62,641 bases of DNA, filler included, from Hausera hauseri (GCA_046269625.1; 11 parts of 11 records of this genome joined end to end with filler, not necessarily neighbours in it), one strand, 5' to 3'. Shown: positions 4,425 to 52,465, counted from the whole stretch's first letter. Made by a program: numbers and translations. Notes: generated by a model from the letters alone, not told the origin.

Positions 4425-4664
4425 CCGATTGTCTTCCAATATTCCGACTGATTCAATAAAAATAGAATCCAGAAAATCCTGCAATGTATTTTGTCCTGTT
4501 GTAGGTAGTACAAATTTTCGCATCCGACTTTTAAAAGCATCGCCATCAGGATGTTTCTGACTTCTATGTTTAACTGCCCCGATCAAAGCGATACTAGGTC
4601 GCTTTCGGCCTCCTGTTTGTACTACTGCACTAGTTGATAGTTTATTGAAGAATTTCCTAGCCAT
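4425..4664 (-). pseudogene. Possible N-terminal fragment of a Polinton-type pPolB gene, cut by the contig end
   Basis: QTGG...DAFKSRMRKFVL...LQDFLD resembles N-terminal regions of invertebrate Polinton-like polymerases. No catalytic motif is visible. Confidence 0.35.
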
Positions 4665-4805
4665 CTCCAGTGCGTCCTTTTGAATCTGAAAAATTGCCTT
4701 TTTTTTCTTTTGATAGAAAGCAGAGAGGTGGTGTCCATGCTGCTTAAAAAATTTGAATAAGAAACTCCTGAAACAGTTTCACATAAAGGACATATATAAT
4801 AATTA

Positions 4806-5504
4806 TGTTAGTAGTTGAAGGTGGGCCCTATTCAACACCCAACTATAACAATATCGAAACTCAAATTTGAACAATAATTATAAACAGATAAGTTTTAACG
4901 TTCTCGTTAGAATGTTTGTACTAGTTTATGATGCTTGTACTGCGTGCTGTGCCTTGCGTAGTTTAGAAATTCTCGACTTAACTATAACGTTTAATACTAT
5001 TTTAATCCTTAGTGTAGTACAAGTCCCTCGTAAGGAGCGACGAAAAACTATAATTTTGAAAAGAAACTTTAGTAACACAAATAACAATACCGATAATCAA
5101 CAGTGAATAATTTTCACGGTCCAAATTCAAAAAACAATCAAGTCCTTTTCCGTATCAATCGATTCATAAAACGTTTAGAATTCTATGCAGTTATACACTG
5201 TACACTGTTTCATTGCGTTTATATAGTAGATTGCATGCAGGATTAGTAATAGAGATTTCTAATTCTTTCTAATTTTTCTCAGTTTCATATTGATTAATTT
5301 CATTAATTGTAGGCAGAAGTTATTTTCTCGACATTTAGTGTGCGGAATTCTAGCAAGTTTTGTCTTTTTTCTGAATAATCCAAGTAATTAATTGATTTTA
5401 ATTGCAATGGTGTATTGTTTCTCTTTCGGTTTTCGCTTTTAGTTTCACTTTCGTTTTCAATTTACTGTACATATACAATTTGTGATTCTCAGCTCTCTAT
5501 AACA
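4806..5504 (-). repeat. 3' LTR (about 700 bp) of the cargo-carrying Gypsy element
   Basis: On the minus strand it begins TGTTATA right after the PPT and ends CTAACA at 4806 (TGTTA/TAACA terminal inverted repeat). It is non-coding and followed by a TA-rich flank. The end at 4806 is less certain. Confidence 0.65.
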
Positions 5505-5516
5505 TTTTTCCTCCCT
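5505..5516 (-). promoter_or_regulatory. Polypurine tract AGGGAGGAAAAA
   Basis: A 12-nt pure purine run directly abutting TGT on the same strand as the integrase. Confidence 0.8.
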
Positions 5517-5697
5517 GAACGGCACTCTCGAATGTGCCCATGGCGTCAGAAGAGGTGCCACGTAACCGGTTCATTTGTCCACGTAGGTCCACTTCCGAAT
5601 CCGATTCTTTTTCTGGTGATTGCGGGTCAAAGTGGTAGGATGTAGTGGGTTTTTGGGGCAATATCTCCACTACCTTTTTATTTTCTCCATTGGCGTA

Positions 5698-6817
5698 CTA
5701 TCTCAGTCTTGTGGCCTCAACTCTACATACGAGGCAGGTCGTCTTCCAATTTTTCAGGGTTCACGTTTCTAAACAGTACCGGCAGTACTTGTGGGTACAG
5801 TCTTTATTATCCAACACCACGAATCCTTGGTATAGATTGGCATCACAAACAGGGCACTCTTTCTTCTACCCTCTGTCTATGTCTACGAGGTTTTCGTCGA
5901 CTTCTATTCGTTCAAATACTGGTTCCTTTTTATTTTGATATAGGTATCCATATAGTCGTTTTTGTTTTGGGTCTATCGAGCTTTTCTTGGTGTCATCTGA
6001 CACGGTGACTAACGTCCATTCAACGATTTCTTGTTGGTCTAAATCTGGTATATCGGTTTTCTTATATTGCCTTTTTAATTGTATTCGGACTTGGGTATCT
6101 ACCGGAATGGTTAATCTATTGGTACCGTTTTTCGACTGGAATATTGGGGTTAAGTACTTGCCAATAGTTATGTCCTCCCGAGCATATCCATTCCCACTTA
6201 CGATTCTCCTAGGAACAGTAGATACGTAGAATATGGTTTCCTTGATCTTGCCTTTGCTGTAATATTCGGCCATGACGGGCATTCTGGTATATTCCTTTAC
6301 TTGGCCAAATTCTGTGACTGATCGGTTCATCTTCTTCCCAATTCATCCGAAGAACGTTTACTTCTGTCTTACGGAGCTTTGTATCAGCAGTTCTCATCTT
6401 GGTCTCGTCGGAATTTTCGGCTTCCTCCCCTTTGGGGTTCTCCTTAGATCCGTTTGCTTATTCGTTGAGCGTGGGACGGCCAGCACATGGTTTCATTTCT
6501 TCGCCCAGGTTCTTACTGGTTTTACTTCTATTCTTGCTAATGTACTCCAAAAAGGAAGTTTTTGTCTTTTGTCCTCTTGGAACTTCTCTGATATTCGGTT
6601 TCAGACTTTCTGTTGCTCTTTTGGGGACCATTTCCATTTCGTTTCGAGCTTGGCTGGTCGATGGTTTATGTTGGTTGCAGGCCGTTCTAACTGAGCTGTG
6701 GTGAACGGTCACTTGACATCTGTTGTGTCCTTGAGGCTCAACTTGTCTATATATTGGGTATTCGCTAAATCCTTTTCGGAATTTTTGTATTAAAATTCTT
6801 GGATTGTTGTTTGACAT
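5698..6817 (-). pseudogene. Gypsy cargo ORF-C: N-terminal dsRNA-binding-motif-like domain (6602-6805) and C-terminal C3HC4 RING finger (5722-5856); premature stops and one frameshift
   Basis: Frames 6458-6820 and 6209-6397 are in register across one TAA, then shift into 5866-6330. Reading through the TAG at 5866 gives KKECPVCDANLYQGFVVLDNKDCTHKYCRYCLET*TLKNWKTTCLVCR, with all eight RING-HC ligands. The N-terminus NPRILIQ...YPIYRQVEPQGHNRCQVTV...ARNEMEMVPKRATESL (68 aa) fits the dsRBD pattern. Confidence 0.75.
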
Positions 6818-7896
6818 CACATTTTGTGTAGGGTTCCTAGGCTTCCACTCATGTTCCCATCGTAGTGAGGCATAAATATTTTTATAAGCCTCGTTCGTTG
6901 ACTTGCTGACATCAATTTAGGAAATCTGAATCGTTCACCATTTATTGTTTCTAGCATCATTTTGAACTGTGATTTACGTGATGCTGACGGAAGGCGGCAT
7001 CCTCTTTTCCTCATTAAGGTGTTTTCTACTTGGCTTACAACCGCTGGATTTCGACTCAGTTCACGAATTCCGGCTATATACTCTTGTCTAACTCCTAGTC
7101 TTTCTAACATTTCGTGTACTCGAAATCCGGTTACAATGCATCCATATAAGCAATGGCTTATATCTTCCCGGATTTCCAAGAAATCTTTCCCTTTTTCGAA
7201 TTGTACTTTCGTAATTCCGGTGACATCGGGAAAGGTATCTTTCACCCTAGTTCTAGGTGCAATTATTTTTTTTATAAGTTCTTCCTCGTTGGTACTTCGG
7301 ATAGAGACTTTAATTGGTGTATACCATCCGTCATCCTTTTCTCCGTAGTTCACGGCTAATATTCGAGTGTTCCGGCCGTCTGGAACTAGCTTGTAAGATT
7401 CTCCATTCTGTTCTATCTCATTTTCTGAAGGCTTTTGTATGCATAGTAATGGTGGTAGCGGTCTCACTACTTTTGTCCGCCAGGTCATTTCGCACATGAG
7501 TTTGGTTGGAAGTTCTGCGATTCTGAATTCCAAAGCATAGTTCATAAGATTATAGCAACATAATTCATAAGTGCTAAATTTCCCTTGTTGTTTCTTTTGT
7601 GTGCTCCAGGATTGTCCTACGATCCTGTATTGAATTTCTCCATCAGCAACATGTATGTACAATTACTGATGTGTCGGTTTATATGTAATAATATCTTTCA
7701 AGAGGTATGCTCGTGCATGTCTGGGGCGATATAAGCTTCTAGATAGTGGCTTGAGGACTGTTACATGTTGCAGGAAATCGTCGATGTCATGACTGGAGTT
7801 GATTGCTGAATTTTTCGCCTTTTCGGCTATACTTACTCTGCTAAAATAAAAATAAAGGTCAATCCTAAGACAGATCATCGTTTTGAAACAAAACAT
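6817..7896 (-). pseudogene. Gypsy cargo ORF-B, unknown protein (281-aa open segment 6817-7662 plus in-frame upstream segment 7663-7896)
   Basis: Long sense-strand ORF inside the element. It contains YELCCYNLMNYALEF, like the CC motifs of ORF-A, and has a possible frameshifted signal peptide (MFCFKTMIC/LGLTFIFILA). Confidence 0.6.
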
Positions 7897-7935
7897 TTTC
7901 TCTGTCTGATGACAGGATAACCTGATCTGTAATTG

Positions 7936-9249
7936 TCAGGTTATGCTATCATAAAGTCCGTCTCGGTACCCTTTTACCCGTTTATCTCCTTTTCGATTTT
8001 CACCGCGTTTATTACAGTTTTTGGAAACTAGGAAAATCATCCCCGTTAATGTGACAAGAACGAAAATTGACAAACTAAATATAGCTATTATCGGTAAATT
8101 ATTTGGCTCAATAGAACCCTTCGTGGTAAACGCATTTTGAGTACTAAGATCTTTTTACTGCATTACCTCAATTTTGTTGTCGAGTTCGTACTGTGAAAGT
8201 TTTAGGGTTTTTACCTTTCGCGGTGATTCTTATTATATAGTTATACTCCAGTCGTAATGATTTGCATTCGGTTTCCTGACTATTCTTAGGATTATAATTT
8301 GGTGTGCAGGGTGCGACATTCAATTTTGACGTCTTGCTTTAACGTTTCTTCAGCGTAAAATAGAATTTTATTACTGCCAAAATCTTAACTGGTATGCTCC
8401 CTAGTTCTTTTTCAAGGATTTCATCCGAAGTGATGATCGCAGTAGTGAGAGTTGTACTTGGAACAGTGGACGGTTGTATCGTAGTGGTTGGAAACGGAGC
8501 TTCCTTATTCCGATTTTTGGGCGGTATCCTCGTAAGTACTCGGTTCTTTAGGGTAAGTGTTGTACAGATCGAACTGTAACTGGTAGTTGTGTCCTAACTG
8601 TAATCTACAGCACACAGTAAGCCGTCGTCGTGCGATATAACAGTTCTCCGGAATAGGAACCGAGGCGTTCAATGGTATAAATCGGACAGAAATTTGTCTG
8701 TCTCCTGGCACTTCTATTTTGGTCTCAATTTGAATACGTTGGTTTTTTAAGTGTGGAAATTCCAATAATGTTATAATTTAAGAGCCTTTTAAATGGGTCA
8801 GTATTTTGGGTTATCTCATCCGTCTTGGTTCGATTCGTGTCATTTAGTTGATGCATTCTTATTAAGAATTCAGTAATTATATAGGCTTGGGCTCCGGGCT
8901 GATTATAATAGAGCATTTGAAATTTGTATCGGTATGTTCGTCCGAAATCTAAATTACAACATATCCTATGAGCTTTGTACGGAAAATTGCATGTTTTCAT
9001 CGTGGATCTAGTTACGAATATTATTTTAGATTTTACATGACTCTGAATAGGTTCACTTGCTTTAAACCATGCAAATGGTTTGCTCCAATTCATATCGTAT
9101 ATTCTAAGTAACTGTAAGTTTTGGATATCCTTTTGTCTTGCCGCATATTGTAGTTTTTTGGTTTGGGTTATCGACCTTGTCTTTGGTATATACGAAGCGA
9201 TTAACGATAAGGCGGGGACTATTTGTACATACGATATTGGTCTAGTCAC
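7936..9249 (-). pseudogene. Gypsy cargo ORF-A: env-position type I membrane protein (repeated CC-x-L-x-x-G-x-x-Y units, Thr-rich stalk, TM 8026-8091, short cytoplasmic tail)
   Basis: Manual translation across frameshifts gives ICCNLDFGRTYRYKF, VCCRLQLGHNYQLQF, PTTTIQPSTVPSTTLTT, ECKSLRLEYNYIIRIT, then IIAIFSLSIFVLVTLTGMIFLV followed by SKNCNKRGENRKGDKRVKGYRDGLYDSIT*. Confidence 0.65.
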
Positions 9250-10476
9250 TATCGACGACGTTCTTTTCTTTGCTCATATAGTCCAATTTTGCTTTTCCCG
9301 AACGCAGATTATAGCGCTTACTTGGCCTTATTTCCGTTTTGACTACTCTGTGGATTGATATGACTTCTCCTTGCCATTTTTGTTGATATATACTGTGCTT
9401 GGTGTGGTTTTGGTAACTTCATAAGGTTCTCTACCTGTTCTGGTGAGTTTAAGAGATGTGCCCTTCTTTGCTACTGGGTAATGTACATAAACCCAATTTC
9501 CTGGTTCTAGGTTGTGTGGTTTAGCCTTGTCATATTGCCTTTTATATTGTTCTTGGTATCCTCTGGATAATTCCTTGGCTATTTCCCAACACTTGTGTAA
9601 TCTCAATTGTAATACTTCGACAAAATTTTGCTCCAAGTCTTCCGTTTTTGTTGTATATGGAATCAATCCTAAATCTGTAGGTAGTATAGCTTCTCTACCG
9701 TACATCATGAAAAACGGGGTGAAACCTGTTGCAGGATGTGGGGTAGTATTAATGGCAAACTGTGTACCTTCCAAGAAATCGTCCCAATCTTTCTGGTCTT
9801 TCGCGACTACTGTCGATAAGATTCGTATAACTGTCGCGTTCATTTGTTCAACTAGTCCGTTATATTGGGGATGATAAGCTGTTGTGGTTAGTCGCTCAAT
9901 TTCGAAAATTTTAGTAATTTTTTCGAACAGTTCGCTCGTAAAGTTTCTCCCTCGGTCTGTCAAAATTTGTTCAGGCGGTCCATATCTGAAAATAATTTTC
10001 CGGACTACTACTACTGCCAGGGTTTCCGCCTTTTGGTCTACTAATGCTATAAGCTCGACGAAATGAATCAATCGGTCTACACAGGTCAAAATATATTTAT
10101 TGCTTTTGTGAGTCGTAAGTAACGGTCCTACAATATCCATGGACATTGCCTGCATTGGTCTATCAGGCACATTGATGGGTTTAAGTTTGGCCATGTAGTT
10201 TTTCACTTTTCTTTGTTTGGTTGCGCATACTTCACAAGCATTCACCCAATTTCTCACGTCGATGTAAATGCTTGGCCAATAATATTTATATAATATTCTT
10301 TCCAATATCTTCTTCCACGACATGTGTCTGGGTAAGTATGAGTCGCGTTCGGCCATTAGTACTTCCGCACGTAATCCTTTTGGTATGATGACTAACTTTC
10401 GCCCCTTTCGTTCGTAGTATAACACATTTTCGTGATTCAAATCTCCTGCGACGCAGTATTTGTGACCATGTCGTCG
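9242..10476 (-). pseudogene. pol: Ty3/Gypsy integrase (pol 3' end, 5'-truncated by the contig end)
   Basis: Zn-finger remnant (RHMS...CEVC), SMDIVGP, LTDRG, YHPQYNGLVE, GREPY. The tail continues in a shifted frame as VISIHRV...RYNLRSGK...DSD*. Confidence 0.95.
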
Positions 10477-15220: not shown

Positions 15221-18200
15221 TTATTTCAGTCGCCAATGTCCATACGCCCAACTCTTATTTCGCCCCACTCACTTTCGCTTATCATCGTTACATGACAAAG
15301 CCACTTTCGCACTAGTCAATTGTACAGTTGGTGCTCAATTGATCAGATCATCGTTTCAGACACCACAGCCACTGATTGTCCTCCTTCTGCTGCTGTTGCT
15401 TCTTCATATATACGGCAATAATGACCGCAATCGATTTCCGTCTGTCTCAGCTGGACTACTTTTGCTCGCATTTTCGCTCCACAGACAATCAGAAGACTGT
15501 GGCGCTTTGGGTATAGGAATATCCATTCCCGATACTGAACCCTGCCTTCACTTTCATCCTTAAAACAGCCGATTTTGTTGGTGGTCGCGCTGCTGTACAA
15601 CGGATAATCCGGTGTATAGTTGGACGTGTGCAGTAATCCATCTGACTGCATTTGCTGCAGTAGCTGTTCGCGATTGACTTTTATCAGCCGCAGGTAAAAA
15701 CTCTGTCACCGGCAATTATACTAATGTCACATCCGTCAAACATTTGCCGGTAACGTGCCAAATCGCGATACTGTAGCTCATACATCCGCAACTTGCTCAG
15801 GTCCAATACCACTTGTCCGATGTAACTTGGCCGGTCCGGAATGACTTCTTCTCTGTTTAACATTATCGCAACCAATCCATCGGAAATGTGCATTAACCGC
15901 CGAATCTGCGCCTTACCCGTGTATGTGACCAACCGCTTTTCGCTATTGCATAGTCGTACATTGAGCCGCTTTTTCAGATTCTCCACTGTTTTTCCGTACA
16001 GTGAATTGTTTTTCAGCTTGTAGTAGTCCTTTTCGATCTTTGTACAAGCTGCGGTTCCTTTCTCCGAATTTCCATCTATATACGCCTTGAATATGGGAGC
16101 CTGAGCAAATCGGATTGCACGATGCAGATGTGTGACGCGAACACCGAGCTGCATGTAGAACTGTGGCAGACGCCAATGGACCACGTAATTCAGCTTCGGT
16201 TCATGCGTAATGAGCAGTTTCTTCACTTTTGAGCCTGGCGAACATGGGTTAAATGGTGCGACCGGTAAATCGTCCAAAACGTCATGCAGCTCATCTGGTA
16301 CCATGAAATCCACCTCCATCAAGTATCCGACTGAGCCTATCATGTCTGCTCGTGGAAGATTAACCATTATGTCGTCCAGATCTTGTCTGTCGACAAACCA
16401 TTCAAATGAACCGTACGGCAAGGGTTGCAAAAGAGCCCAGCCATACAGGTTATTAATATCAATATACAGCAATGATGTGGTATCGGTAGCACTGACTTGA
16501 TGCTTGTTGACAAATGTCATGCCACTCAGAATACTAACATCAAACAGCCGGTACATTTTCGGGTCTTGCAGCAGCTCAATGTCTCGATCCAGTGACATTA
16601 GAGATGACGCCAAACTCATTCCCGGTATGGAATAAAAGTTGAGTGGCTCCAGCCTATCTTCAGCCAACGCTTTCGCTCGAAACGCTTGGAATACATTGGC
16701 AAATAAGTACACGTTCAGTTTAAGATATTGGAGCATGTATTTCAACATGTTTTTAAAGCCGAGTTCTATCCAACACATGTGCTTTCCGGTATTCATTCTC
16801 TGCGATACCTGTCCATCGCGGCTGTAATTCCTCTGATGTCCGGAGTCGCTCAAACGATGTAGCAAAGTCATATGGGAATATGCCTTTGCTGCGTGCAATA
16901 TGTGCGGGGAACTGCGTCAGTGCTATCGGCACATCCGGCAAGACATTTATCGGCTTTGCCAATGATTCATTAAGAAATTGCAATGAGTCAAGGAAACGTA
17001 CCTAGAACCGGTTTATACAAGCATACAGTGACAGATATTTCTCCATCATAGTCGGAATTATGGATGGTTCCCAGTGCGGAAATCCGTCTATTGCCCATTT
17101 CAACATATGCTGACAATCATAACTCCTGAAGTTATGAAATACCATCGGTAAGAATGGCCGCACACGCCATGCCAAATTACATAAATTACATGCTGCTCCG
17201 AGATATCGACCAGTAAAATGATCGTGATCCGGTACGAGCCGTTCCTGTGCATCGAACAGTAATATTTTGTGGCACAGGTAACATTCATCTGTGACTACAA
17301 ACATCAGGCGTTCATCTTCATCTGTCCACATCAAGGGTTTATTGCTATTTCTACTGTACCAAGGTGTGATTTCAGTTTCCACTATGGTTTGAAACTGCTG
17401 CAAGAAATCGCGTACACAATTCAATCCGTGGAAAACATAATATTGAGGTTGACCTGTGACTTTTATTGGGACAACCAACATACCGACGGTGATTGGAACA
17501 TGTTTTTGGTCATATATGTTGTGCCGTGGTAAGATAGCTTCTATATCGACATATACTACATATAGCTGACTGTCTGTTTTTGACCAATCAATGAATCTTA
17601 GCGCCTTTTTGACGGGCATTACATACATTGTGGTTCCTGACAAATTTTGTCTGCACAGATTCATATGTTTCTCCCATGTTGTTTCCGACCTGAATGCACG
17701 AAGACACAGGACACAATTTACACTGTATCCGTTTTTGGACGAAATGGTCATGCTTCATGTTCAGTAGTCTGTCCAAATTTGTCACTGAAACGTAATGGTA
17801 CTTTTCTTTTTGTTCCAGTAGCAACGAATTTACTGAGCGGCCATTTTGGTTCCGACTACGATAGATTATATCCACATGATAATTTTTGTAAATTTCATCC
17901 GTCGGTATTTCTACAATTGTGTTATACCGGAACACGCTGATTGCCAGTATCGGATTATGCTGCTCAAAACCTGAATAAGTTTCAGTTTCATTGGCATCCA
18001 GCTTTCATCGAAATCCAATTGAGAAAAATATTTCTGATACTGTTTTGGACGAAATGCACTGTCTGTCCACTTCGTCATACTTCAATACTGTCATAATACT
18101 GCAAAAAACAGTATTCATCGTTAGTATTTTTTTACATTCAATATCGCCAGAGACTGCTTCAGAGCTGCAGGTGTCGGTATGAATGATCGTCAAGACAAAT

Positions 18201-18705
18201 ATATTGTCATTCGACTTTGTTATGATAAAGCCGAGAGTGACAATCTTTACAATTCGCCATCCACTACCCTTTCCGTGTAGTTGGCAATTTTCTCGAGCTT
18301 TACGCCAATCACAGCGATAAAATCCTCGGTATATGGTACAGATCGATGTGACAGGTACCATTGTTTCCTGTCGCCTTGCACGTTTTCGAATTCTGGAAGT
18401 GCATAATACTGCACTTTGCGGTGGTGGTGTTGGAATTTGTCAATTTCAGATTCCAACCGGTTTCGCAGAATTGATGGAATGTCTCAATTGCGTTGTTGTT
18501 GTCGCTGACATGTTCACTTTTATATCCACGTACGATTTCTTCAGATCATACTTGAAAGTAATGCGTGATTCCTCCCCCTGTTGCTGCTCCTTCTGCCGTT
18601 TTTGATTTCTGTTGTTTTGAAAGTATTCGTCAATGCTTGTTGATGCCTGACGTTTCCTATTTGTTGACGGATTACTGCTGCTGCTGATGCTTTTGCTGCG
18701 TCCAT
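15221..18705 (-). pseudogene. Polinton/Adintovirus-type protein-primed family B DNA polymerase, copy 1 (frameshifted)
   Basis: GSGW, VVYVDIEAIL, DHDHFTGRYLGAACNLCN, FHNFRSYD, KGIFPY, YIDINNLYG (motif A), KLKNNSLYGK (motif B), IAGD (damaged motif C), IGCFKDE, DDKR...AYGHW. Confidence 0.93.
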
Positions 18706-21599: not shown

Positions 21600-22765
21600 T
21601 CTTATTATTTAGATTGGGATACAAGAGGACTATTTTCAATATCCTTCATCTATTAATTGCAAAGTACAGAGTGAATAAGATAACAGTGAACAAAGTGCAT
21701 TTAAGACTGTATATGGTATGAGTTTCAGAAAGGAAGGTACGCGTCGGTTGCTTGTAAAAACTTATGAGACACGTTGGGAAGTGAAGTTGTAAATGTTCGG
21801 ACCTGCCAAAGATGATTTACCAAATTTCGTTCAGGTGATATCAGTCTCAAAGAAGATCGTCGATCTGGACAGCCACCGAAGATCGATATTGACATTTTGC
21901 AGTACATTTGGAGAGTAGCCCACATCTAACCACTAGATAAATTGCAAAGCAACTCGGAATCCACCATTGGACTGCTGAGGAACACATAAAACATCTTGGA
22001 TTTGTCTTGAAGCAGAGTATTTGGGTTCTGCACTATTTGACAGAAAAAAATTTATCGGATCGTGTGAGAATCTGTTTATCTCTGCCTATTAGACACAATG
22101 TGAAGCCGTTTTTGGACAAGCTCATTACGGGAGATGAAAAGTGGACCCTTTAACAGAATGTAAATAGAAAAAAAGTTTACTGCAAACCTGGAACATCCGC
22201 CACAATTATTTCAAAACCAGATCTTCATCAACGGAAAGTGATGCTTTGTTTGTGGTGGGATAGAAGAGGTCCAGTGTACTACGAGCTACTTAAACTGCGG
22301 CAAACCATCAATGCGAACACCTATTGTAACCAGCTTGATAAACTGAATGCAGCTATAAAGGAAAAGCGGCCAGTAGTAACGAACAGAAAAGGAATTTTGT
22401 TCCATAAAGATAATGCAAAACCATATACTGCAATGGTGACGCAACAAAAGTTGAATGAGCTTTGATGGGAAGTTCTTAGTCACCCACCATATTCACCTGA
22501 TATAACTTCATCAGATTACTATCTATTCCGATCACTTCAGAATTATCTGACGAGAAAACCTTTACTTCTTTCGAAGCTGTCTTCACGGCAGTCGCTGAAT
22601 ATTTTGGGTCAAAGGGTGAGAAATTCTATGCTAGGGGGTAGACAAGCTGTCTGACAGATGGCAATGAGTGGTTGCAAATAATGGATAATATATTATTGAT
22701 TAAAATGTAAATAAGCGTTATTAAAACTTATTCAAATATTTTATTTAAAATACGATAGAACTTTC
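21600..22765 (+). mobile_element. Mariner (DD34D) transposon, decayed; 3' TIR cut by the contig end
   Basis: SGQPPKID, WVLHYLT, ITGDEKW, MLCLWWD, FHKDNAKPY, HPPYSPDITSSDYYLF; stop at about 22703. Confidence 0.92.
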
Positions 22766-28608: not shown

Positions 28609-31600
28609 TGGAGGAAGCAAAAATCAGTATTCCCTCAATAAGCAGAAAACGTCAAGCATCAACAATTCTTGACGAATACCTGCAAAGCAGCAATACAGAG
28701 CATCAGCAGCAAGAGCAGCAGCAGGAACAGCCCATTAATGTCAAGTACAACCTAAACAGATCGTATGTGGACATAAAGGTAAACATGTCGGCGAAATCAG
28801 CAACCCAACTGAGGCATGTACCCGCTTACGTGCGCAACCGGTTAGACACCGAAGTGGAGAAATTCAAACACCACAACTGCAAAGTGCAAAATTATGCACT
28901 TCCAGAATTTGAAAACGTTGAAGGTGACAGGAAACAATGGTACCTGTCACATCGAGCAGTTCTATATTCAAAAGATTTCATTGCCGACATAGGCGAAAAG
29001 GTAGACGAAAAAATCGCCAACTATACCGAAAATGGCAGTGGTTGGCCAATGATAAAAATTGTCACTCTCGGTTTTATTATAACAAAGTCGAATGACATAA
29101 TTTACCTGTCCGAACGTTCATTCATACCTACACCTGAAGCTCTAAAGCACTCTTATGCGGTAGTGAATGTAAAAAACATGGACGATGATTACTGTTTTAT
29201 TTACGGCATTCTGGCGGCATTAAAATATGATGAAATGGACAGACATAATGCATATCTTTCAAGTCAGTATCGGCAGTATTTTTCCGAATTGCAATTGGAC
29301 AAAAACTGGATGCTGTCAATCAACGTGTTCTGGCACAAAACAATAGTTGAAATACCGGCAGGCGAAGAAATTTACAATAATTCACATGTGGATATAATCT
29401 ATCGAAGTCGAAACCCGAATGGACGCACAGTAAATTTGTTATTGTTGGAACAGGCAGAAAATTTTCATTACGTGGCCATAACAAATTTGAGCCGACTATT
29501 GAACATGGATCACCATCAGTTTGTCAAAAAAAATACGTTGTAAGTAGTGTCCTACATGTCTGCATGGCTTCAGATCAGAAACCACATGGGAAAAACATGA
29601 GGCAATGTGCAGACAGAATGCATCAGGAACAACAATGTACGTCATGCCAGTCAAAAAGGAGCTGCAATTTAGTGATTGGTCTGAAACGGACACTCTAGCA
29701 TATGTGATATATGCTAATATTGAGGCAATCCTACCACAGCACAACGTATAGCGTTGAAAACATGTTCCAATTGCCGTCGGAATGTTGGTTTTCTTAATAA
29801 AAGATGCAGATCAACTGCAGTATTACATGTTTCACGGCTGGAACTGTGTTAGTGATTTCCTGCATCATTTGGAAACAATAGTTGAATCGGAAATCGCACC
29901 ATGGTATAACAATAGCAGCAAAAAACCCCCGATTTGGACAGATGAACGCCTGACGTTTGCAGTCACAGAGGAATGTTACATATGCCACAAAATATTACCG
30001 TTTGATTCACAGGAACGACTCGTACCGGATCACGACCATTTTACCTGTCGGTACTTGGGAGCAGCATGCAACGCATGCAATTTAGCGAGGCGCGTGCGAC
30101 CATTACTACCGGTGATCTTTCATAATTTCCGAGGTTATGATTGTTACCATGTACTGAAATGGGCCATCAAAGGATTTCGGCACTGGGAACTGTCCACAAT
30201 CCCAACAGCAATGGAGAAGTACCTGTTCTTGTCGGCACACATAAACCGGTTCCAGGTACGCTTCCTTGATTCATTGCAATTTCTCAATGAATCACTGGCG
30301 AAGCTGGTAGATGTGCCGATAACCTCAACGCAGTTCCACACACATTGCACGCAGCAAAGGCATATTTCCATGTGACTTTGCAACATCATATGAGCGACTC
30401 TGGACAGCAGAATAATTACCGCCGCGATGGAAAGGCATCACAGAACTTGAATATCAGAGAGCACAAGAATCTTGCACATAGCTTGGCTGTAGAAACATGT
30501 TGGATTACATGCTACAGTATCTTAAACTGGACGTGTACTTATTGGCTGATGTGTTCCAGGCGTTTCGGGTGAAAGAGTTGGCTGAAGATAGGCTGTAGCC
30601 ACTTAACTTTTATTCCATACCGGGAATGAGTTGGGCTTTAGCTCTAAGATCACTGGATTGAGACACTGAGCTGCTGCAAGGCCCGGAAATGTACCGGCTG
30701 TTTGATGTTGGTATTCGCGGCGGCATAACATTTGTCAACAAGCATCAGGTCCATGCTACCGATATCACATCACTGCTGTATATTGATATTAATAACCTGT
30801 ACAACTGGGCGCTTTCGCAACCCTTGCCGTACGGTTCATTCGAATGGGTTGTCGACAGACAAGATCTGGGCGACATAATGGTTAACCTACTACGAGCAGT
30901 CATGGCAAGCCCAGTCGGATACCTGATGGAGGTCGATCTCGAGATATCAGATGAGCTGCATGACATTTTGGACAATTTACCGGTCGCACCATTTAACCAA
31001 TGACCATCAGGCTCAAAAGGTAAGAAACTGCTCATGACGAATAAACCGAAGCTGAATCGCGTGGTTCATTAGCATCTATTACAGTTCTACATGCAGCTCG
31101 GTGTACGCGTCACACAGCTGCACTGTGAAATCCGATATACTCAGGCTTCCATATTCAAGGCGTACACAGATGGAAATTGTGAAAAACGATCCGCAGCTTG
31201 TATAAAATTCAAAAAGGACTACTACAAGCTGTAAAACAATTCCCTGTACGGAAAAACAGTGGAGAATCTGAAAAATCGGATCAATGTTCGTCTATGCAAT
31301 AGCAAAAAGCAGTTGGTCACGGACACGTACAATGCGCAGTTTCGGCGGTCAATGCACACTGACAATGGATTGGTTGCGGTGCTGCAAAACAGAGAAAAAG
31401 TCGTTCTGGACCGACCAAGTTACGTCTGACAAGTGGTATTGATCCTGAGCAAGCTGAGGATGTATGAGCTGCAGTATCGTGACTTGGCACATTACCGACA
31501 AATGTTTGACGGCTGCAATATTGGCATAATTTCCGGTGATACAGACAGTTTTTCCTGAGTCTGAAAAACGTCATTCGTGAACATCTACTGCAGCAAATGC

Positions 31601-32009
31601 ATTCAGGTGGATTACTGGACACGTCCAACTACCCACCGGATCATCCGTTGTACAGCAACGCTATCACAAACAAAATCGGCTGCTTCAAGGATGAAAGTGA
31701 AGGTCGGGTTCAGCATGGAGAATGGATATTTCTATGGCCAAAATCTAATAGCCTTGTAACTGGCAGAAAATGCGCGCCAAAACAGTTCAATTGGCCCAGA
31801 CGGAAATAAACCACAGTGATTATCGCCGTGTCTATGAAGAAGAAGGAGGACAATCAAAGGCTGTTGCGTCTTAAACGATCATGCAATCAACTGAGCACCA
31901 ACTGTATACGGTGACCAATATAAAATTCGCTTTATCATACAATGATAATAAGCGAAAGTGGGTGGGGTGAAATAAGAGTTGAGCGTACGGACAATCGCGT
32001 TTGAGATAA
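28608..32009 (+). pseudogene. Polinton/Adintovirus-type pPolB, copy 2 (decayed)
   Basis: GSGW, NVKNMDDDYCF, HYVAITNLSRL, DHDHFTCRYLGAAC, GIRGG, YIDINNLY, NNSLYGK, GDTDS, IGCFKDE, DNKR...AYG. Confidence 0.93.
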
Positions 32010-37644: not shown

Positions 37645-40600
37645 ATGGCACAAAAACCAGTAATAGCGCCGAAACTGGATATTTTTACATTCGATTCTTT
37701 GAATCTAGAGGCATATGATGGATACCTGGACGGATTAAACGAATTTTTGAGAATATATAATCTGCACGCAGAAGGTGCAGGACTTCAAACCGAACAAATG
37801 ATAAAACGTTTACCACTTTGTTTAAAGAATTTAGCCGCTGATGCCTATACAGAGCTTACGAACGACGAGAAGAAAACTTGACCGCCACTAGTAGCAGCCT
37901 AAAACCGTAAATTATTGCTAACGGTAACTCCACAAGAGAAACTCATGGCTTTTCAAAATAGAATGCAACAGAAGGGCGACTCAGTCACCCTATTTGTATT
38001 TGCACTAAAGAAAGTGGCAAATAGATATATAAGTACGTTACGAATAGCGAATGTAGCTAAAACTAAAAATGAAGCCGAACGCGAAGCTGCAGAGAAGGCA
38101 ACTCCTCCAGATCTAGATGTTATGATGAGACACAAATTATAAATGCTATATAGTCTAGAGACCTAGTGAAACAGTTAATTTTAGCTCTATCAGAAAACTT
38201 TGACAAAACCTTGCATTTAGCTCAAGACTTAGAAATGGCATTGGATAGATATTCATGACAAAATCATAGAAATGACAGAAACGATAGAAACAATGATAGA
38301 AACGATGGCAATCGAAACTATAACCGTAACCGAGATAGTAGAAAGTTCAATAACAATAATAGAAATTACGATAATAGAAACCATCGACACGATTATTGAA
38401 ATTCTGGAAATAAACTAAACACAGGTAATTCAAATAATAAGCCGAATTATAATTCAGATAGAAACCAAAATAGTTATAGAAGTTCGATTAATGGAAATCA
38501 ATATAACGGCAACCAGAACAATGAGCATAGATGTAATGCAGGCAATAGACAAGGATCAACGAACCAGAGTAATAATAGAAATTTGAGTAGGTCCAAATCA
38601 CCTATAAACAAAGACGGTCGGCAAAGATTTGGTAGAAAGGATAATTTAATTTGCTATACATGTGGCAAGGAAGGACACATCGCAAGGTCATGTCCGAATC
38701 CACGTAGTGTTTCATTCACCGAGCCCAATAAAGCTAGTATGATTAAAACTAACGAGAGCTTGGAAGTGATCTATGGTACCCGAGGTGACATAAGTATGGT
38801 CACTGAAATCGAAAACTTGCAGAGATGTATGATGATTTAAGGCTAAACAAATAATCCACAAGTTTTAGAAACTAGAAATGAATATGAGAATAATTTACAA
38901 CTAATGGAAGTTTACCGTGGACTAATATAGCCGCAAATAAAACACGAATAAGCTATAGCACCGAAACCAACCGATATGACACGGAAAAGAGTGTTCCAGT
39001 AATTAGTAAAGTAACCGAAAATTTCCAACGAAGTATATCTAGATGCAGAAGTAGAATATATAGTCAAAAGATTAAATAAAACCATAGAAGCACAAACAAA
39101 TGAAGCTGAAAGAGAGTTCATGGAAACACTGATAATCAAAATAACGCAAAATAGAGGAAGGAGTCCCTCAATTAAACGAAAATACAAAAATCGTTCGCGA
39201 TCTCCTGTACCGAAATAGAAAATAGCGAAAACAAGAGACGGAAATCGGTGCAGAAAGCGACGTCGAACTTAGTCAAAATAAAACAGAACTTGGTTCAATT
39301 GCACCCGTTGGAGTAAACAATTAGCACAATCAGTAAATGAAATAAACGACATATGTCCGCTGCCTACTAGTGAGGAAGAAACAGAACAAATCGAGAAGTT
39401 CGATCAGAAAAAGTGAAAAGTTAGACGATTATGGAAAAATGCACATAAACTGAAAGAATGAAAATTTTCTGTCACGACTTAGAAATGCTACAGTAGAACC
39501 TAAAAAACATAAGCCGATCACCGAGCAGATAGATGTCTCCGGTGAAGAACAACAGTTTGCTGAAAAATTGTATAAAAGTTTGAAAGTATGCACTGATAGG
39601 ATACTCGATGAACCAATCGACTTAGAATAACCCGAGGAAGTGCCATCAGAAACGTTAGCAATATAGAAACATGAATTAGAATCATGGATAAGATGTGGAG
39701 TTGGATTTTCAAAAATGTGGAGTAAAAATGAGGATAGCATCGATGTGAAAGTGGCTAAAGTTCGTAAAATATTAAGTACGTTAGAAGCAAATCCGAAATT
39801 GAAGCAAGTGAAGCGTAATTTAGAACAATCAATGAAAGAAATTAGGTTTGCAATGGTTAATCGACTTAGAGAGAAACCGGTTAACGAACGGGATGAAATC
39901 GAATTAGAAATATTGGGTATAGACCTCATAGATATTCCTCCTTTAATGGAGATAATAAAAATTGCGTCCACTGAACCTAAACATTATGCAAATATAGAGA
40001 CCCGCATTAAAACTGGGAACAGAAAACGGTCACAAATTTATAGTTTAAGAAACCGAATAAAGTATATGAACAACGAAGAGGCTCAAAATGTAATAAAATC
40101 TTGTATCTCGGAATTTGATGAGTACACGGATGAATTAAGCTATATCAACTGGATCATGAGTTTTATAAAAGGCCCAGAGGACGAATTAAAATATGCTTAT
40201 AAAATGTGAGACAAAGCAATATTAACGAAGCCTGTAATAGCTAAACAACTAATGGAATGGTTCTAATTAATACTGAGACTGAGTCAGATAGTGAAGAATC
40301 GCATAAAAGAATTCCCAGAAAGAGAAACAATAGTGAAGCAACAATTGGGAGAAATTTCAAGGAATTTAGATACCATCAGAGCGGGAGTAGACATACGAAC
40401 GCAATTCAACATACTACGACAAGTAAAAATTATGGGTAAGAACGAAGAGATTATATTATTGAACGAGGTATATAAAATAATTGAAAGGACATATTTCCAA
40501 ATGAAACGAGACATGACTTGTGACCTCTATCCGAAATTAAGAAATGTTCGTTTAGAAGGAATCCAACAATTAGCCTCAAAACCCATAAATAAAATCTCAA

Positions 40601-41691
40601 TACAAAAAGTGAAACTATTATATATCTGCCAGGATTACAAGTTGTCAATAGAGGGAACGCTAAAATTTCTACAGGACCCTCATAAATGGATACCAGGATC
40701 AGATAAGAAATGGCATACCAAATTATTGGAAATAAGGAACGATCACCAACTCACGTTTGAAGAAATCAACTTTGTTAAAAAGTTGATTGAGGAATTCGAC
40801 CCAGACTCAAAAACCCTGAAAAAAACGTATAAAGTAACGATATTATTAATGGAAATGGCCGAGATCAACAACGAAAAGATGGGACAATTGATTAATCAGA
40901 TACCTCATACCGAAAGTATTCAGATCCATACAAAACAGAGAGAAAAGGGCTTGGCAAAATTATCCAAAAAGTTGGAAGTATATAGAAACAAATGTCTTTA
41001 CTGAATCAGAGCTAAATAATAAAGTGGAATTCGCGCAAAGTGGCATAGAAAAATAACTACAAAACTAACTGATTATCAAGAAAAAGGGCTGATCCACCCA
41101 GTCGACCTATGTCAGCTACTACATTTACTATTTCATGCCTGGAGAAATGGAATTGGGTTACGGACCACACAAATGAGCAAACTACAACCTGGATTAAACG
41201 AAATACGAGAAAGAATTCAAAATAAAAATGCGGCACTAATCGACTGCGACCTTCCAGAGATTTGAAACGATCCTATCTGGGATGAATACTTGGAAGCAGT
41301 AAACAATCAAAATTCGAGTACCCCGATACAACTCTATGAGACAGAAGTGTATCCACAGAGTCGTAGAATCAATGTGGAAATGCTTCTGGATCGTGCGATA
41401 ACCGAACGGAATTTAATCGATCTAATTAACGTAAATATTCATGAGAATAGGTTAAGACAACTTATTCCTATACTAACTAAATTATCAAGCGAAAACGCAA
41501 CTTACAGTACTGTGCCGAAACTTTTAATAAAAAAATACGCTAAAATCTTGAAAGCTATACAAGAAGTGACGCTTAAAGTAAAAGTGTCATCTGAATGGAT
41601 GGATAAAAGGGAAGGTAAATGTACAACATCTATTTGTGTTAAAGATGTTATATATGGGTGGTCCTTAACTCAAGCCCCGTATATATATAAC
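37645..41691 (+). pseudogene. gag: Ty3/Gypsy gag with CCHC zinc knuckle and a very long (about 3 kb) post-knuckle extension, decayed
   Basis: KRLPLCLKNLAADAY, RMQQKGDSV, Asn/Arg-rich linker, CYTCGKEGHIARSC (38652-38693), then sense-strand ORF remnants to the contig end. Confidence 0.8.
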
Positions 41692-43429: not shown

Positions 43430-46400
43430 TTAATTCATTTGATAATCCGATTCCAAAGGCTCTCCTTCCAATTTCGTAAAATTCAAGAAATGTGTCGGAC
43501 GATGCAATTTATGATAATAAGTCAGTGGTAAACCAAGTTTCACATCGTATTTGGAATTTGTGCTCAATCGAACTCCATGGAAGTTGTAGTTCCATGAAGA
43601 CACATTCGGAATAATAAAGAATCCTTGGAATTTATCTGACAGCAACATTTGAACTTTTTCAAAATGACTTGGTTGATATCCCTTAGTACTACTTGATTTA
43701 TCTCGAACCGATCTTCCCCATTCGAAACCACCAGGCGTCAGTTTATAAGCACATAGTGTAACCGATCCCGGAGTGAAAGAACACGTCATTACAATCGTTC
43801 TCTGTCCATCTTTTTCAGCAAATACTTTCGCATGAGTAGAAATGTCCTGAGGTGACAACTGCGGAGATTCATTCGACTGAGTGTGTATCCAACCAAGAGG
43901 TTCCATTTCGTCCAAAATGTCGTGTTGCGGTAAATCGTTCGGGAAATCAACGTCGTGTGGAGTGCCTGCCTGCGGCGGCAGTACAATGCACCGAATTTCT
44001 TTAATTTGAGGCTTATCGGGTGGACTGACGCCGTACAAAAAGCCAGCAACTTGAGTTCTCAAATCACCAATAACAATAAATTTCTTCAGAATGTTCTGTG
44101 GTAAAATGAAAGTATATGCACCATCTTTGGATTCTTCATTGCTAATGTAAATATTATTCGTTCTCAAATTTAAACCAGTTGCTGAGATGGCTCTCACACG
44201 CCACTCCGTCTTGCTGGTGAAATGTTGCGTTTCATAATTGCTTGTAGTCGTTGTTATAATTTCATCTCCATGTTTGTTCGTCGTTCTGGTGGTAACTGCA
44301 GTTAACTGAGATTGTTCTTTATTCTGCTTCTCAATTTCTGCAATTTGCTGTCGCTGTTGAGATGGTGTGGAAATCTCCATTCCCAGAATAATGTCTCGAA
44401 TTTCAGACTGAGTCAATGACGCTACGTTAACATTATTTCGTTTGCCATAATCCATTAAAATCAGATCCTTCAACTGGTTTTCGACATTTGTCCATTGCTG
44501 GGGTGTTAATGTAGGCCAAATATGATGCTGTTCGGTGATAACAGTATTGTCAGGTTTCAGTATAACTTTGGCTCTGTCATTGTTCACATGTAATGCTCTC
44601 AGAATTAATATCAATCTAGAGAAAGCCGTGTATGAACTAACTGATTCTAACCAATCGTCATACAAATTATACAATAACATTTTCGGTTCTGTTGCTCGAA
44701 GAATTTCATCTCCAAACTTCTCTACCTTAAGACATGCTTGGAATGGAAGCTGCAACTCGCTACCCTTGATGATAATATTTGGAAAATCAAGCAAGTGCAC
44801 TTCGAGAGGATCTAACATTCCCTTTCTTGTAACGATAATCTGTTTCGGTTGTTCTTCAACAGGCACCGATCGAATAAGTGCTGCTACTTCTTCTGCTGTT
44901 TTCCACTTGGCTAACTGACCAAGACGTTTCTGGCCTGACCATACTGAGGTGTGAATAATTTTCAAATACAATTGTCCAGTTCGTGGATTGAATATGAAAA
45001 TTGCTCCGTTGATAGGTTTTGTAGTCAGATTGCCTTCGAATGTTTTATGAATGGTAACACGGTACACATTAGTATCGTCAACAAACCATATAATTTGATT
45101 TGAGAACAATTCATTGTAATTCTGAGAACTTAAGTAAGGTTCCGTCGGTTCACTGGAGTATAACTGTAATGCCTTACGAATACGCTCCCTCAAAACATAC
45201 AATGCGGGATTTGATTTCATTATTTTCGTCATTGCCTGTTGCATCAATTTCTTCAAACCAGGCACCCAGTTTCCGTATGCAGAATGGATGTTGTATGCCA
45301 AATCAATTGCCACCATAACTCCTGTCGGTGATGGATAAATGGACATAGCATCATTAACGTAATCGTTAAATTTCGACCTGGCATATCGTTCAACGTCGTG
45401 AGAATCATAATCACCCCATCGCAACTGCACGTCAATCCAGAACTTTGGTGTAGTAGTACCGTCTGTCATGTCATTCGAATCAGCCAATAAACTAGGCTTC
45501 GAAACGTTCCATTTATACGAAGCAAACAGTAAAATATCTGCGCAACTTGAATTCATTTTGTATGATTTCCGAGGATGAATAGTTTCTTTCTGAACAGCGT
45601 CAATTTCCAAAGAATCCAAATGTTGGTCCAAAACTTGACAGAGATCCATTACAACGGCTTCGTGGACCTTTTGCCACAGATGAGCTCGGAATATTTGAAT
45701 AAGTGAAATCTTCAACGTCGGAATTTTTCCATGCATAAATATTCCGGTTAAATCCAATTGAACTTGAAATCCAACGTACACATTGGCTCTGTTAATAGTT
45801 GGTGACCACCATAATGTAAATCTACGATTCGGAATTTGGTTCAGACCACTACGCTGGGCATTAGTCAATTTTTTATACTTCATAGATTCTTCAAAACCGC
45901 TAGCTTTTTCCCAAAACAAACCTTCCCAAGTAGGGAAGTACGTTCCTCTAAACAAAGTATGTTCGAGTATTCCCTCAACTCCTCCAAGAGCTTGAATCAT
46001 ATCCGTTCTGTAATTATTCAAATTCCACAATTTACCATCGTGACGCTGATTTGTCCACCAAAATGGATTTTGTTTTAACACTTGATACGTTTTAAAATGC
46101 GTCCTTACTCGCCAACCTCTATCGTACTGAAGCGTATGTCTATCTTTCTGGAAAAGTGTATTTATTCTTGGAATACCTTTATCCCAGCTGTCTTCCAAAT
46201 CTTCGAGCGTTAATCTACGATGTTGGGCGGTGCTTTCTTCACGTTTCTGAGCAAATTCCGCCCAAACTTTCAATGATTCTTTAAATTCTTGTTGCCATGA
46301 AGTAATATAAGGATAGAGATTTGGTATAGCTTGATCCGTATCATGGGACATTCCAGATCGATAATGAGTAATAATAGCGTCAGTCTGTCTAGACCATCGT

Positions 46401-46960
46401 AAGTCAGATTGTGGAATTAAAACGTGACCCATAGACACCATTCCCAGACCACCTAATTCTTTAGGCGTATAGAAAACAACTGGAGGAAATCTAGCAGGCA
46501 TTTTTGAATTCAGACCGATCTTTATACGCGTTTGTATTTTATTCTCGCACTTGACAAGAAGATCCAACAGTTCCGGTGTGCCTAAAACTGCTTCTCTAAA
46601 ATACGTCATCAAACCAATAAGAGCAGTATTCCATTTGTTAACGATTTTTGTAAATGTTGTCGAACCTGATGCCATGAGAATTTGACGCACCCGATTATGG
46701 AATTTTTGCATATGTTCTTCATCGACACGCAAGTAACACATTGCTGTTGTACCTTTAGTATCTTCGTTTTGTAATTCCCATTTTGCACTGGACGACTGAC
46801 TATCTTCTGATATATTTTGAATAGACGTTGGCACAATTCTACAGTCAAATCCACACATGCTGAACAGCAAATTTGGATTGTCCTTACTAAACACTGACAC
46901 GAAACTGTTTTCCCAAAGAATTGTTGTTAGAGCTCTGGGTATACGATTCTTAATATCCAA
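43430..46960 (-). CDS. PRPF8: Pre-mRNA splicing factor 8, C-terminal half only (thumb/X, linker, endonuclease-like, RNase H-like, Jab1/MPN); intronless and uninterrupted; first ATG at 46858
   Basis: [102 protein letters not shown]; ends at a normal C-terminal position. Confidence 0.97.
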
Positions 46961-47500
46961 AAAACGGCTCGTTCCAAATTCACATCATGTTTCGTCAAAC
47001 GCATCCGGCAATCACGAGGGTAAAACTTTTTATTGTTACATCCAACAATTTTTTCATTATTTGGATATGGATTCTCATTTAAACGACGCTGAATCAATTC
47101 CCAAGCCTCTTCAGTTGTGAATCTGGAAAGCATCCAAATTCTGTCGACATATCGATAATAAAGTTGTATTGGATGCACGATCTGTATTTGAACACCTTCG
47201 AACTGACAAAGCGAATTAGATTCATGAGACGGACCAACCATATCAGTCGTACGTGGTAAATCGAGAACCAGAAGATCGAGAATAAGACCGTAGTATTGAA
47301 TAATAAATGACGAAAATAGGAGACCTCTGATTGTACCAAAGATATTTGAAGGCATCATGCCTTTGTATGAAATAGGAACGTTATATTTTGGAATTCATGT
47401 AGTCAGCGATATTGTAATACATAATCAAATTCAACAAACGATTTAAAAATGTCAAATCGATCTTTTCATACATTTTCTCCAATCTACTTTCCAGTTAAAC
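46961..47500 (-). pseudogene. PRPF8: Decayed upstream PRP8 stub (RT palm region)
   Basis: [23 protein letters not shown]...IRGLLFSSFIIQYYGLILDLL...[17 protein letters not shown] has one stop, two frameshifts and substitutions at conserved residues. Homology ends at a 10-bp tandem duplication at 47501-47520. Confidence 0.9.
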
Positions 47501-51204: not shown

Positions 51205-52465
51205 TCAGGTTGTGTGAAAAGTATTGTCGGTTTTTGTGAATGACATTTTAATAGCATGTTATTGGTTACCGACTTGGACTTACCATATTGTTTTTAGTAC
51301 ATATGTGTAGCCCATAACCTATTTTTATTGCACATTTTGTTTCACTGTTCCAACATCATTATGTATTATTATACACATTCAACATTACGATGACTTCTCA
51401 GCAAATTCGAGTGTGCCTCTTGTACGAATTCAAACTTAACCATTCTGCAACCGAGGCAGCCCGCAATATCACGCAGGCGTGGGGTGAGGACTCTGTTACA
51501 GAACGCATGGTGCAGCGTTAGTTTGCATGCTTTTGTTCTGGCGATATAAATCTTGAAGACAAGCCACGTGCAGGACGTCCATCACTTGTTGATAATGAAG
51601 TTCTGAAGGAGAGGAATGAATCTGACTCCTCTCAGAGTACGTGAGCTTTCACTATTCCTCAATGTCCAACCTAAAACCATTGAAAACCACCTTCATGAAA
51701 TTGGTAAAGTGTGGGCCCTTTACAAATTGAGTGAAAAGAACAAAACCCAATGTATCGTTATCTACACTTCTTTGCTATTACACAACAGTAATGACCCTTT
51801 TGGAAAGAATTATCTCCAGTAATGAGAAGTGGATTATTTATGACAATTCTCATTGTTCTGACCAGTGGCTGGATGAGGATGAGCCTCCTGGAAAAGTGGC
51901 CAAACGAGATATTCATTCTAAGAAGACAATGATATCTGTCTGGTGGTCCATGGCTAGTGTTATTCACTATTTGTTCCTCAAACAAGGTACAACCATCATA
52001 TCTGATATCTACTGCAAGCAGCTTGACAAAGTGAATGAGAAACTTCAACACCAGCAGCTTACATTGGTCAATAGAAAAATTCCCCTAATTCTTTACGATA
52101 CTGCGAGGCCACACACGTCCAAAGACTGTGCAAAAGCTGAAAGAACTTGGTTACGACACTGTTCCCCGCCCTCCTTATTCTCCTGACATCGCTCCTACAG
52201 ATTTTCACTTATTCCGATATTTGGCCAACATCCTAAAAGGAAAGTTCTTCAAAGACTAAGTTGAGGTGGAAAATGCTTTTTTCAACTTCGTAAACTCCAA
52301 GAAACCTAGCCTTTACAAATCAGGCATTGAAAAGCTAGTGGAACGTTGGTTAAAGGTTATAGGAGTAAATGGTGACTATTTCAATGAATAAACTTTATTG
52401 TATGGAAAATGTCTTATGTTCAGAGTTTGGGTCCAAAAACCGACATTACTTTTTACACAACCTGA
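51205..52465 (+). mobile_element. Complete mariner element (1261 bp) with TIRs and TA target duplication; transposase 51390-52391 disrupted
   Basis: 32-bp TIRs TCAGGTTGTGT(G/A)AAAAGTA(T/A)TGTCGGTTTTTG flanked by TA; motifs RAGRP, ISSNEKW, MISVWW, YDTARPH, PYSPDIAPTDFHLF. Confidence 0.96.

Follow-up and report, generated by a model that had tools for sequence, protein, structure and literature searches.

A 62,641-nucleotide stretch of Hausera hauseri DNA (GCA_046269625.1; hereafter the window) contains, on the minus strand of its contig 4425–10476, a decayed element, very probably the 3′ half of one copy of a multicopy Ty3/Gypsy-type long terminal repeat (LTR) retroelement with two accessory genes. 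The first, open reading frame (ORF) A, or ORF-A, encodes a predicted membrane protein, and the second, ORF-BC, a protein predicted to combine a DEDDh-type pseudo-exonuclease domain with a RING finger. The explanation that we favor overall, with a probability of roughly 50%, is that of a Ty3/Gypsy element with a non-env membrane gene and a pseudo-DEDDh–RING gene that would counter host defense. The window consists of 11 short contigs joined by N50-TTAATTAATTAA-N50 spacers, and adjacency across spacers is therefore meaningless. The element fills nearly the whole of its own contig, in which all gene coordinates are on the minus strand, and because this contig begins inside the integrase, gag, reverse transcriptase (RT), and the 5′ LTR lie outside view.

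Read on the minus strand, the contig displays in succession an integrase, ∼3.7 kb of cargo, a polypurine tract, and an LTR with TGTTA...TAACA ends, a layout proposed in the initial annotation and borne out by both domain matches and sequence. As in Ty3/Gypsy elements, the integrase is the last part of pol and combines an H2C2 zinc finger (Integrase_H2C2, PF17921; Pfam E 3e-13) with a DDE core (rve, PF00665; E 2e-12), followed by a tail that is translated in the next reading frame. Its closest relatives are gypsy-type pol proteins with 36% identity or less, and most of the 49 longer relatives carry RT and RNase H domains. The TG...CA 3′ LTR with a polypurine tract in front of it is also a Ty3/Gypsy feature. 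The minus strand has eight purine runs of at least 11 nt, of which the tract is one and not the longest; its meaning therefore comes from its position directly before the LTR, which stands, and not from its being striking by itself. In a tree built by a quick method (51 rows; 49 homologs filtered to alignments of more than 250 residues), the integrase falls in no strongly supported clade. Because RT is absent and the tree did not place the element, family membership rests on the integrase and LTR features. In the same tree the integrase pairs with another one in the window (Shimodaira–Hasegawa-like approximate likelihood ratio test, SH-aLRT, 93). This nearest integrase, 40% identical, belongs to a decayed gypsy pol at 52635–56250 (plus strand), after which ∼1.5 kb has no Pfam match in the three plus-strand frames and none to the cargo described here.

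The family was surveyed in contigs of two runs, X1, which may come from the source sample, and X2, matched at 80% likeness and assigned to 30 bins along the element. In X1, 10,221 contigs match (783 at 99% or more, 1720 at 95–99%, 3634 at 90–95%, and 4084 under 90%), and in X2 752 contigs do, with 30 of 30 bins covered in each run; most matching contigs are 80–95% alike to the element. One diverged piece bridges the integrase tail to ORF-A (8927–9329, 65 differences), another bridges the RING, the purine tract, and the LTR (5460–5828, 68 differences), and the joints of internal deletions (5814–9030, 5570–8015, and 6985–7802) show the cargo genes in the same order. The cargo is part of a large family of repeats. 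That it might occur once and never with this integrase or LTR, which would have spoken against a retroelement gene, is contradicted by these many copies and bridging pieces. Because the cargo lies inside an LTR element, recurs in order in diverged copies, and has an intact, uninterrupted relative ending at the same purine tract/LTR junction (see below), it does not represent flanking spliced host genes, in agreement with the initial annotation. CpG decay was tried and rejected as the source of the private differences of this copy, since it fits one of 14 tested sites (from 40 of ∼1,395 listed).

The LTR boundary at 4805/4806 is marked in X2 by two loose ends, one contig each. One breaks off from the flank at 4805, as expected of an empty site or of a different insertion, and the other prolongs the LTR end with a TGG that starts 1–2 bases after the terminal CA and is primer-binding-site-like in this single contig. 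We take this TGG-starting junction to resemble an arginine-tRNA primer site; a scan of the window gave no tRNA gene for comparison with it, and the available part of PMC5408687 contains nothing on primer sites.

The second accessory gene was delineated using an intact relative. A search of 1.84 billion protein representatives with the RING region, translated through its stops as X, returned four matches, three of which are confined to the RING. The fourth, P0055 (E 7e-72; 51% identity over its residues 596–869), is an 870-residue protein encoded in an intact single frame on a 16,242-base ENA contig and is alone in its cluster. P0055 is collinear with the window copy over three blocks, 7791–6883 (38%), 6895–6368 (30%), and 6339–5500 (47%), with a combined E of 3e-149. 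Because it aligns across both as one frame, what had been annotated as ORF-B and ORF-C is a single gene, ORF-BC, and the cargo comprises two genes instead of three. In the window copy, which is decayed as first thought, ORF-BC is interrupted by stops at 7665, 6460, 5868, 5763, and 5700 and by frame changes near 6890 and 6350. The gene crosses the purine tract and enters the LTR, within which its stop codon lies (5499–5497), and the QGGKML encoded by the tract and the LTR start corresponds to the last residues of P0055, QGGEML. Such an overlap of a reading frame with the purine tract and LTR recalls lentiviral nef. Conservation between the two relatives, by which we mean the window copy and P0055, is 38–51% and concentrated in four blocks separated by a poorly conserved linker, which argues for selection on the protein. 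P0055 has no transmembrane segment after residue 30 and holds a basic KKRRK stretch. As a query, it retrieved only itself among 6851 candidates, and the ORF-B piece retrieved no homolog among 405. Searches of viral contigs with ORF-B, the integrase, P0055, and a piece of ORF-A gave no matches, nor did phage records and prokaryote genomes, and a metagenome scan with the integrase gave three distant loci (31–37%) from all of which the cargo is absent.

Upstream of ORF-BC, a candidate splice acceptor, i.e. a pyrimidine tract ending in AG at 7850–7841, suggests a spliced message for this gene. The earlier statement that introns are absent holds for the coding blocks, but an intron may end just before the second gene. 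A donor-like GTAAGT is present at 7837–7831 on the minus strand, four bases past the acceptor-like AG at 7841, where P0055 has a similar peptide. An Rfam scan of the contig gave no matches to E 1.

The ORF-B portion, to which the initial annotation gave no function, encodes a conserved but unassigned N-terminal domain and a DEDDh/DnaQ-fold domain. In the Atlas, the 281-residue open piece of the window copy has RNase_T as its top match (0.91), and all 10 of the 10 best family matches belong to one family or clan; the matches include arenavirus nucleoprotein and DEDDh_C. Residues 246–345 of P0055 match DnaQ (8h18, E 8e-4) and PolC (2p1j, E 3e-3) in the PDB. When a two-sequence profile was compared with the PDB, DnaQ, ISG20L2, SDN1, and PolC were the top four of five matches (E 0.015–0.041), and PHROGs (E 1e-4) and NCBIfam dnaQ/PolC (E 0.004–0.011) agree weakly with this fold. 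A DnaQ-superfamily domain encoded after pol is also what characterizes the bdelloid-type elements discussed below. At ExoI, however, the window copy reads ILAVNYGE and P0055 IIAINTGE versus VIDIETDG in DnaQ 8h18; where ExoII would have its Asp, both relatives have a Met. The positions aligned with the Asp and Glu of ExoI and the Asp of ExoII are thus non-acidic in both, so that loss of the catalytic acids is a family trait and not the result of decay. The domain is therefore, as judged from these alignments, probably a pseudo-nuclease. AlphaFold models (mean predicted local distance difference test scores of 35.4 and 29.1) are evidence neither way.

The ORF-C portion had been read as a double-stranded RNA-binding domain (dsRBD)-like stretch plus a RING finger, of which the RING finger was upheld. 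It scores below the Pfam cut-off in the window copy (E 0.0045) and above it in P0055 (E 2.6e-7), and its best matches are active E3 ligases. The RING of P0055 is C-terminal and a B-box has no Pfam match there, unlike the RING–B-box–coiled-coil organization of PML/TRIM proteins. The dsRBD found no support, as neither the stretch nor the whole of P0055 has a Pfam match to it and none of the nine PDB matches to E 10 is a dsRBD; the first half alone of this stretch is conserved in P0055. A cold-shock domain, also considered, gave no matches. The two unassigned blocks of P0055 were Pfam-scanned within the whole protein.

ORF-A, at most ∼445 codons long, is broken by a minimum of three frame changes plus two stops. 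As first annotated, it is predicted to encode a membrane protein, with one transmembrane helix serving as a C-terminal anchor like that of env carriers, no second hydrophobic segment above 1.9, and a basic tail of ∼30 residues with two tyrosines after the helix. These tyrosines, at the very end of the tail (7936–7975, minus strand), are five residues apart and presumably resemble a sorting or signaling motif. ORF-A has an ectodomain of ∼390 residues, four N-glycosylation sequons, cysteines, and one RxxR. It also has three Cys-x(1-2)-Leu-x5-Tyr motifs, the last two of which are separated by a Thr/Pro-rich stretch. ORF-A holds three of the four matches to this pattern in the contig and three of the eight in the whole window, counts that are not an independent test because the pattern was derived from these same sequences. 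Alignments of the repeats gave p = 0.001 for 1 versus 2, 0.066 for 2 versus 3, and 0.56 for 1 versus 3, so internal repetition is partly supported. The motif recalls, we assume, a fibronectin type III strand; Pfam, PDB, and the Atlas gave no match to the broken pieces.

The env-carrying errantiviruses are defined by an ORF3 homologous to an F or gB fusion glycoprotein. A three-frame Pfam scan of ORF-A found neither an F-type nor a gB-type env, whereas the env used as a control was recovered at E 3e-183; PDB and the Atlas are also blank, the first ORF-A piece having no usable match and low recognition in the latter. The proposal of an entry gene, in the sense of a fusogen, was thus not borne out, and a role for ORF-A in adhesion or binding is more likely than one in fusion. 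The control, L001 (546–8436), is a gypsy element with open pol and env, the latter a Monjiviricetes-type fusion protein. After this env comes a fourth ORF of ∼250 residues that contains Cys pairs and lacks a Pfam match, another possible accessory gene.

Table 1. Features of the element and its surroundings (positions in the window)
Feature	Position	Strand	Remarks
Spacers	4325-52634		ten of them
Flank: different repeated sequence, inferred insertion target	4425..4805	.	many contigs in both runs; no Pfam match
3′ LTR, 699 bp, TGTTA...TAACA (TG...CA ends)	4806..5504	-	from sequence; TAACA at 4810-4806
TATA-like box; poly(A)-like signals	within LTR 4806..5504	-	box at 5225; signals at 5006 and 4995
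Polypurine tract	5505..5516	-	abuts TGTTA at 5504; within final codons of ORF-BC
ORF-BC, single broken gene (= earlier ORF-B + ORF-C)	5497..7791	-	about 760 codons in this copy; encoded protein of about 800 residues; collinear with P0055
C3HC4 RING finger	5725..5856	-	eight ligands in both relatives; one stop inside in this copy
Conserved domain before RING, unassigned	5890..6280	-	within 51% match to P0055; weak CAT Pfam match, E 0.01
DEDDh/DnaQ-fold domain, predicted pseudo-exonuclease	6883..7365	-	Atlas, PDB, PHROGs, NCBIfam
Conserved N-terminal domain, unassigned	7440..7722	-	aligns to P0055 residues about 121-215; no Pfam match
Candidate splice-acceptor-like pyrimidine tract ending AG	7841..7850	-	upstream of ORF-BC; from sequence
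ORF-A, broken gene, predicted single-pass membrane protein	7936..9273	-	four frame pieces
ORF-A transmembrane helix	8035..8091	-	mean Kyte-Doolittle 2.54 over 19 residues
Three Cys-x(1-2)-Leu-x5-Tyr motifs	8225..8961	-	at 8961, 8612, 8266; one per reading frame
Integrase: H2C2 zinc finger, rve core, basic tail	9242..10476	-	truncated by contig end; frame change near 9345-9370

How might these two genes serve the element? ORF-BC would be made from a spliced subgenomic RNA via the acceptor at 7841. Its dead nuclease domain might dock on element RNA or cDNA or, alternatively, on partners of host DEDDh restriction nucleases, while the RING would recruit an E2, and host factors gathered there would be ubiquitinated and removed, comparable with the action of complex-retrovirus accessory proteins. 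ORF-A would be displayed on the cell or vesicle surface for adhesion or binding and not fusion. There are precedents for parts of this scheme in what was available of the sources: the restriction of retrotransposons by host DEDDh proteins is in part independent of catalysis (PMC10123124), and in PML, a RING protein, a pseudo-exonuclease domain binds G-rich nucleic acid (PMC13659232). These parallels with Plex9/TREX1 and PML are analogies. A host-countermeasure role is plausible, and that ORF-BC acts as an anti-defense E3 ligase has, in our estimate, slightly less than an even chance. A bolder version appears doubtful to us: the element would represent a new complex invertebrate lineage with a lentivirus-like plan, pairing a non-fusogenic surface protein with a nef-position ubiquitin ligase that would derive from a disarmed ISG20/REX4-type nuclease, mirror PML-type factors, and destroy defense proteins on the RNA/cDNA of the element.

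Several observations weigh against the explanation that we favor. ORF-A belongs to no family in Pfam, PHROGs/NCBIfam, PDB, or the Atlas, and among the X1 and X2 pieces listed none spans the whole element, i.e. no full-length copy was seen. Just one intact relative of ORF-BC turned up among the 1.84 billion representatives, and it is the last residues of P0055 that suggest a 3′ LTR behind it as well. The DEDDh matches are weak one by one: Pfam RNase_T matches neither the window copy nor P0055, phmmer against the PDB with the window copy alone gave nothing significant, and the top Atlas match shares 165 features against a guide of 170. ExoIII looks non-acidic as judged by eye only. Finally, two blocks of ORF-BC are without a family, and its role could thus differ.

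The main rival explanation, an unlikely one by our reckoning, retains the domains of ORF-BC and changes its role into that of a CERV-like or Rev-like regulator, whose dead nuclease domain would bind the unspliced RNA of the element and favor its export, stability, or packaging, the RING then being a scaffold or self-regulator. The acceptor-like site before ORF-BC fits this, since unspliced RNA would then need protection, as does the KKRRK stretch in P0055. A complete C3HC4 RING whose best matches are active E3 ligases points instead to ubiquitination, no RING is described for CERV in the available part of PMC10309623, and the contig has no Rfam element. Alternatively, the DEDDh domain could be a nuclease that is still active because its catalytic residues have shifted, and could trim the RNA or cDNA of the element. 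Such trimming has been proposed for bdelloid ORF3s, which keep a variant DEED motif (PMC5408684, available in part). In both relatives there are acidic residues after the ExoI position, but the loss in both of the aligned ExoI and ExoII acids makes this the least probable of the alternatives.

Two further alternatives concern the cargo. ORF-A could be a true envelope/fusion protein of an unrecognized class, in which case the element would qualify as an endogenous retrovirus that is infectious and carries a single env plus a single accessory gene. Its position directly after the integrase, single C-terminal helix, sequons, cysteines, and RxxR would suit an env, and bdelloids have short env-like ORF3s without homology (PMC5408684, in the part available). 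This is nonetheless quite improbable, given that no frame matches the F or gB families when the L001 env is so readily found, that ORF-A has at most ∼445 codons versus ∼700 for that env, that it lacks a second hydrophobic segment above 1.9, and that repeats and a Thr/Pro stalk are more receptor- or adhesin-like. Passive capture of host DNA, i.e. of one gene for a receptor and another for an exonuclease/RING protein, spread without serving the element, would account for the host-type nature of every recognized domain, for the broken state of the window copy throughout, and for the internal cargo deletions in many copies. It is a very unlikely account, because no host gene with the same domain order was found in the protein-relative searches, the intact relative has preserved a frame of 870 codons at 38–51% identity and overlaps the LTR start in the same way, and the base composition of cargo and integrase is nearly equal (A 0.37–0.38). 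A Ty3/Gypsy element with a non-env membrane gene and a putative counter-defense gene thus remains the explanation that we prefer.

Other contigs of the window contain further features. The C-terminal half of Prp8 is encoded at 43430–47394 (minus strand) in one open frame of 1,184 codons, with its best score against human Prp8 (2210 bits), and a degenerate-looking piece lies upstream of it. This score is suggestive of an animal as host, provided that all the contigs derive from a single organism. At 38400–41691 (plus strand), a gag-like zinc knuckle is followed by ∼2 kb of unassigned ORFs, which may represent a large gypsy polyprotein extended by additional domains. Two copies of a polymerase-B-like long-ORF region, 75–86% alike, lie at 15506–18467 and 28831–31742 and are, we presume, Polinton-like, whereas the transposase fragments at 22154–22465 and 51731–52186 are presumably mariner-like.

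Few counter-defense genes are known from animal LTR retrotransposons. If the proposed role is true, the substrates of a transposon-encoded RING ligase would name host anti-transposon factors in a non-model animal, and ORF-A may extend the short list of surface proteins in such elements (F, gB, and FAST-like). Because an intact natural protein, P0055, exists, the questions of ligase activity and binding are testable.

Comparison with known systems, made on the available parts of the sources cited, shows which ingredients are familiar. A DnaQ-like domain has been termed a well-known accessory domain of LTR elements (PMC6338049). A close parallel is with the bdelloid Juno and Vesta elements (PMC5408684), animal LTR retrotransposons in which a DnaQ-superfamily exonuclease gene likewise lies after pol, in the env position, and whose ORF3s are typically expressed from spliced RNA. 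The Juno/Vesta enzymes, however, are DEDDy/RNase D-like with intact catalytic residues, and form the sole ORF3 or are joined to GDSL. ORF-BC is not of this DEDDy type: it is DEDDh/DnaQ/PolC/ISG20L2/SDN1-like, has lost three catalytic acids, is fused to a RING, and is preceded by a membrane-protein gene. As in errantiviruses, that gene comes directly after the integrase (PMC13524379), but ORF-A is shorter, is neither of the two env types, F and gB, that this survey of env-carrying gypsy elements recognizes, and is followed by a second large gene. The words "RING," "dsRNA," "fibronectin," and "accessory" are absent from the main text of that survey. An env-independent membrane protein of a gypsy-type element is also found in the MDG1 group, whose FAST-like sORF2 is short compared with the ∼390-residue ectodomain of ORF-A (bioRxiv 10.1101/2025.03.14.642691).

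Cer1 of Caenorhabditis elegans resembles the present element in having a large non-env accessory protein, CERV, located after pol and before the 3′ LTR, which is spliced and has a pseudo-enzyme domain and a Cys-rich part (PMC10309623). As compared by description, CERV differs in its G-protein-like domain and in sharing exons with gag, and neither a RING nor a DEDD fold is described for it in the text available. The planarian Burro/GYPSM1 is likewise a gypsy element with a RING-type motif and ubiquitin- and apoptosis-related host domains, but these lie upstream of RT within a single 5,000-residue polyprotein and not in separate genes after the integrase (PMC6431247). Among host proteins, PML-I unites a RING and a DEDDh pseudo-exonuclease, and nucleic-acid binding without catalysis is a further parallel with PML-I and Plex9/TREX1 (PMC10123124, PMC13659232); PML is a host gene with the reverse order, an N-terminal RING–B-box–coiled coil and a C-terminal exonuclease fold, and offers an analogy only. 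The literature searched, to which Repbase, Dfam, most subscription papers, and supplements did not belong, describes no element pairing a pseudo-DEDDh–RING gene with a non-env membrane gene. The initial annotation recognized no described architecture here, but the novelty is smaller than first claimed: animal LTR retrotransposons are already known to include DEDD exonuclease ORF3s, giant gypsy polyproteins bearing a RING, and accessory genes that are spliced (PMC5408684, PMC6431247, PMC10309623). In sum, this is a real and unusual multicopy Ty3/Gypsy element that carries accessory genes.

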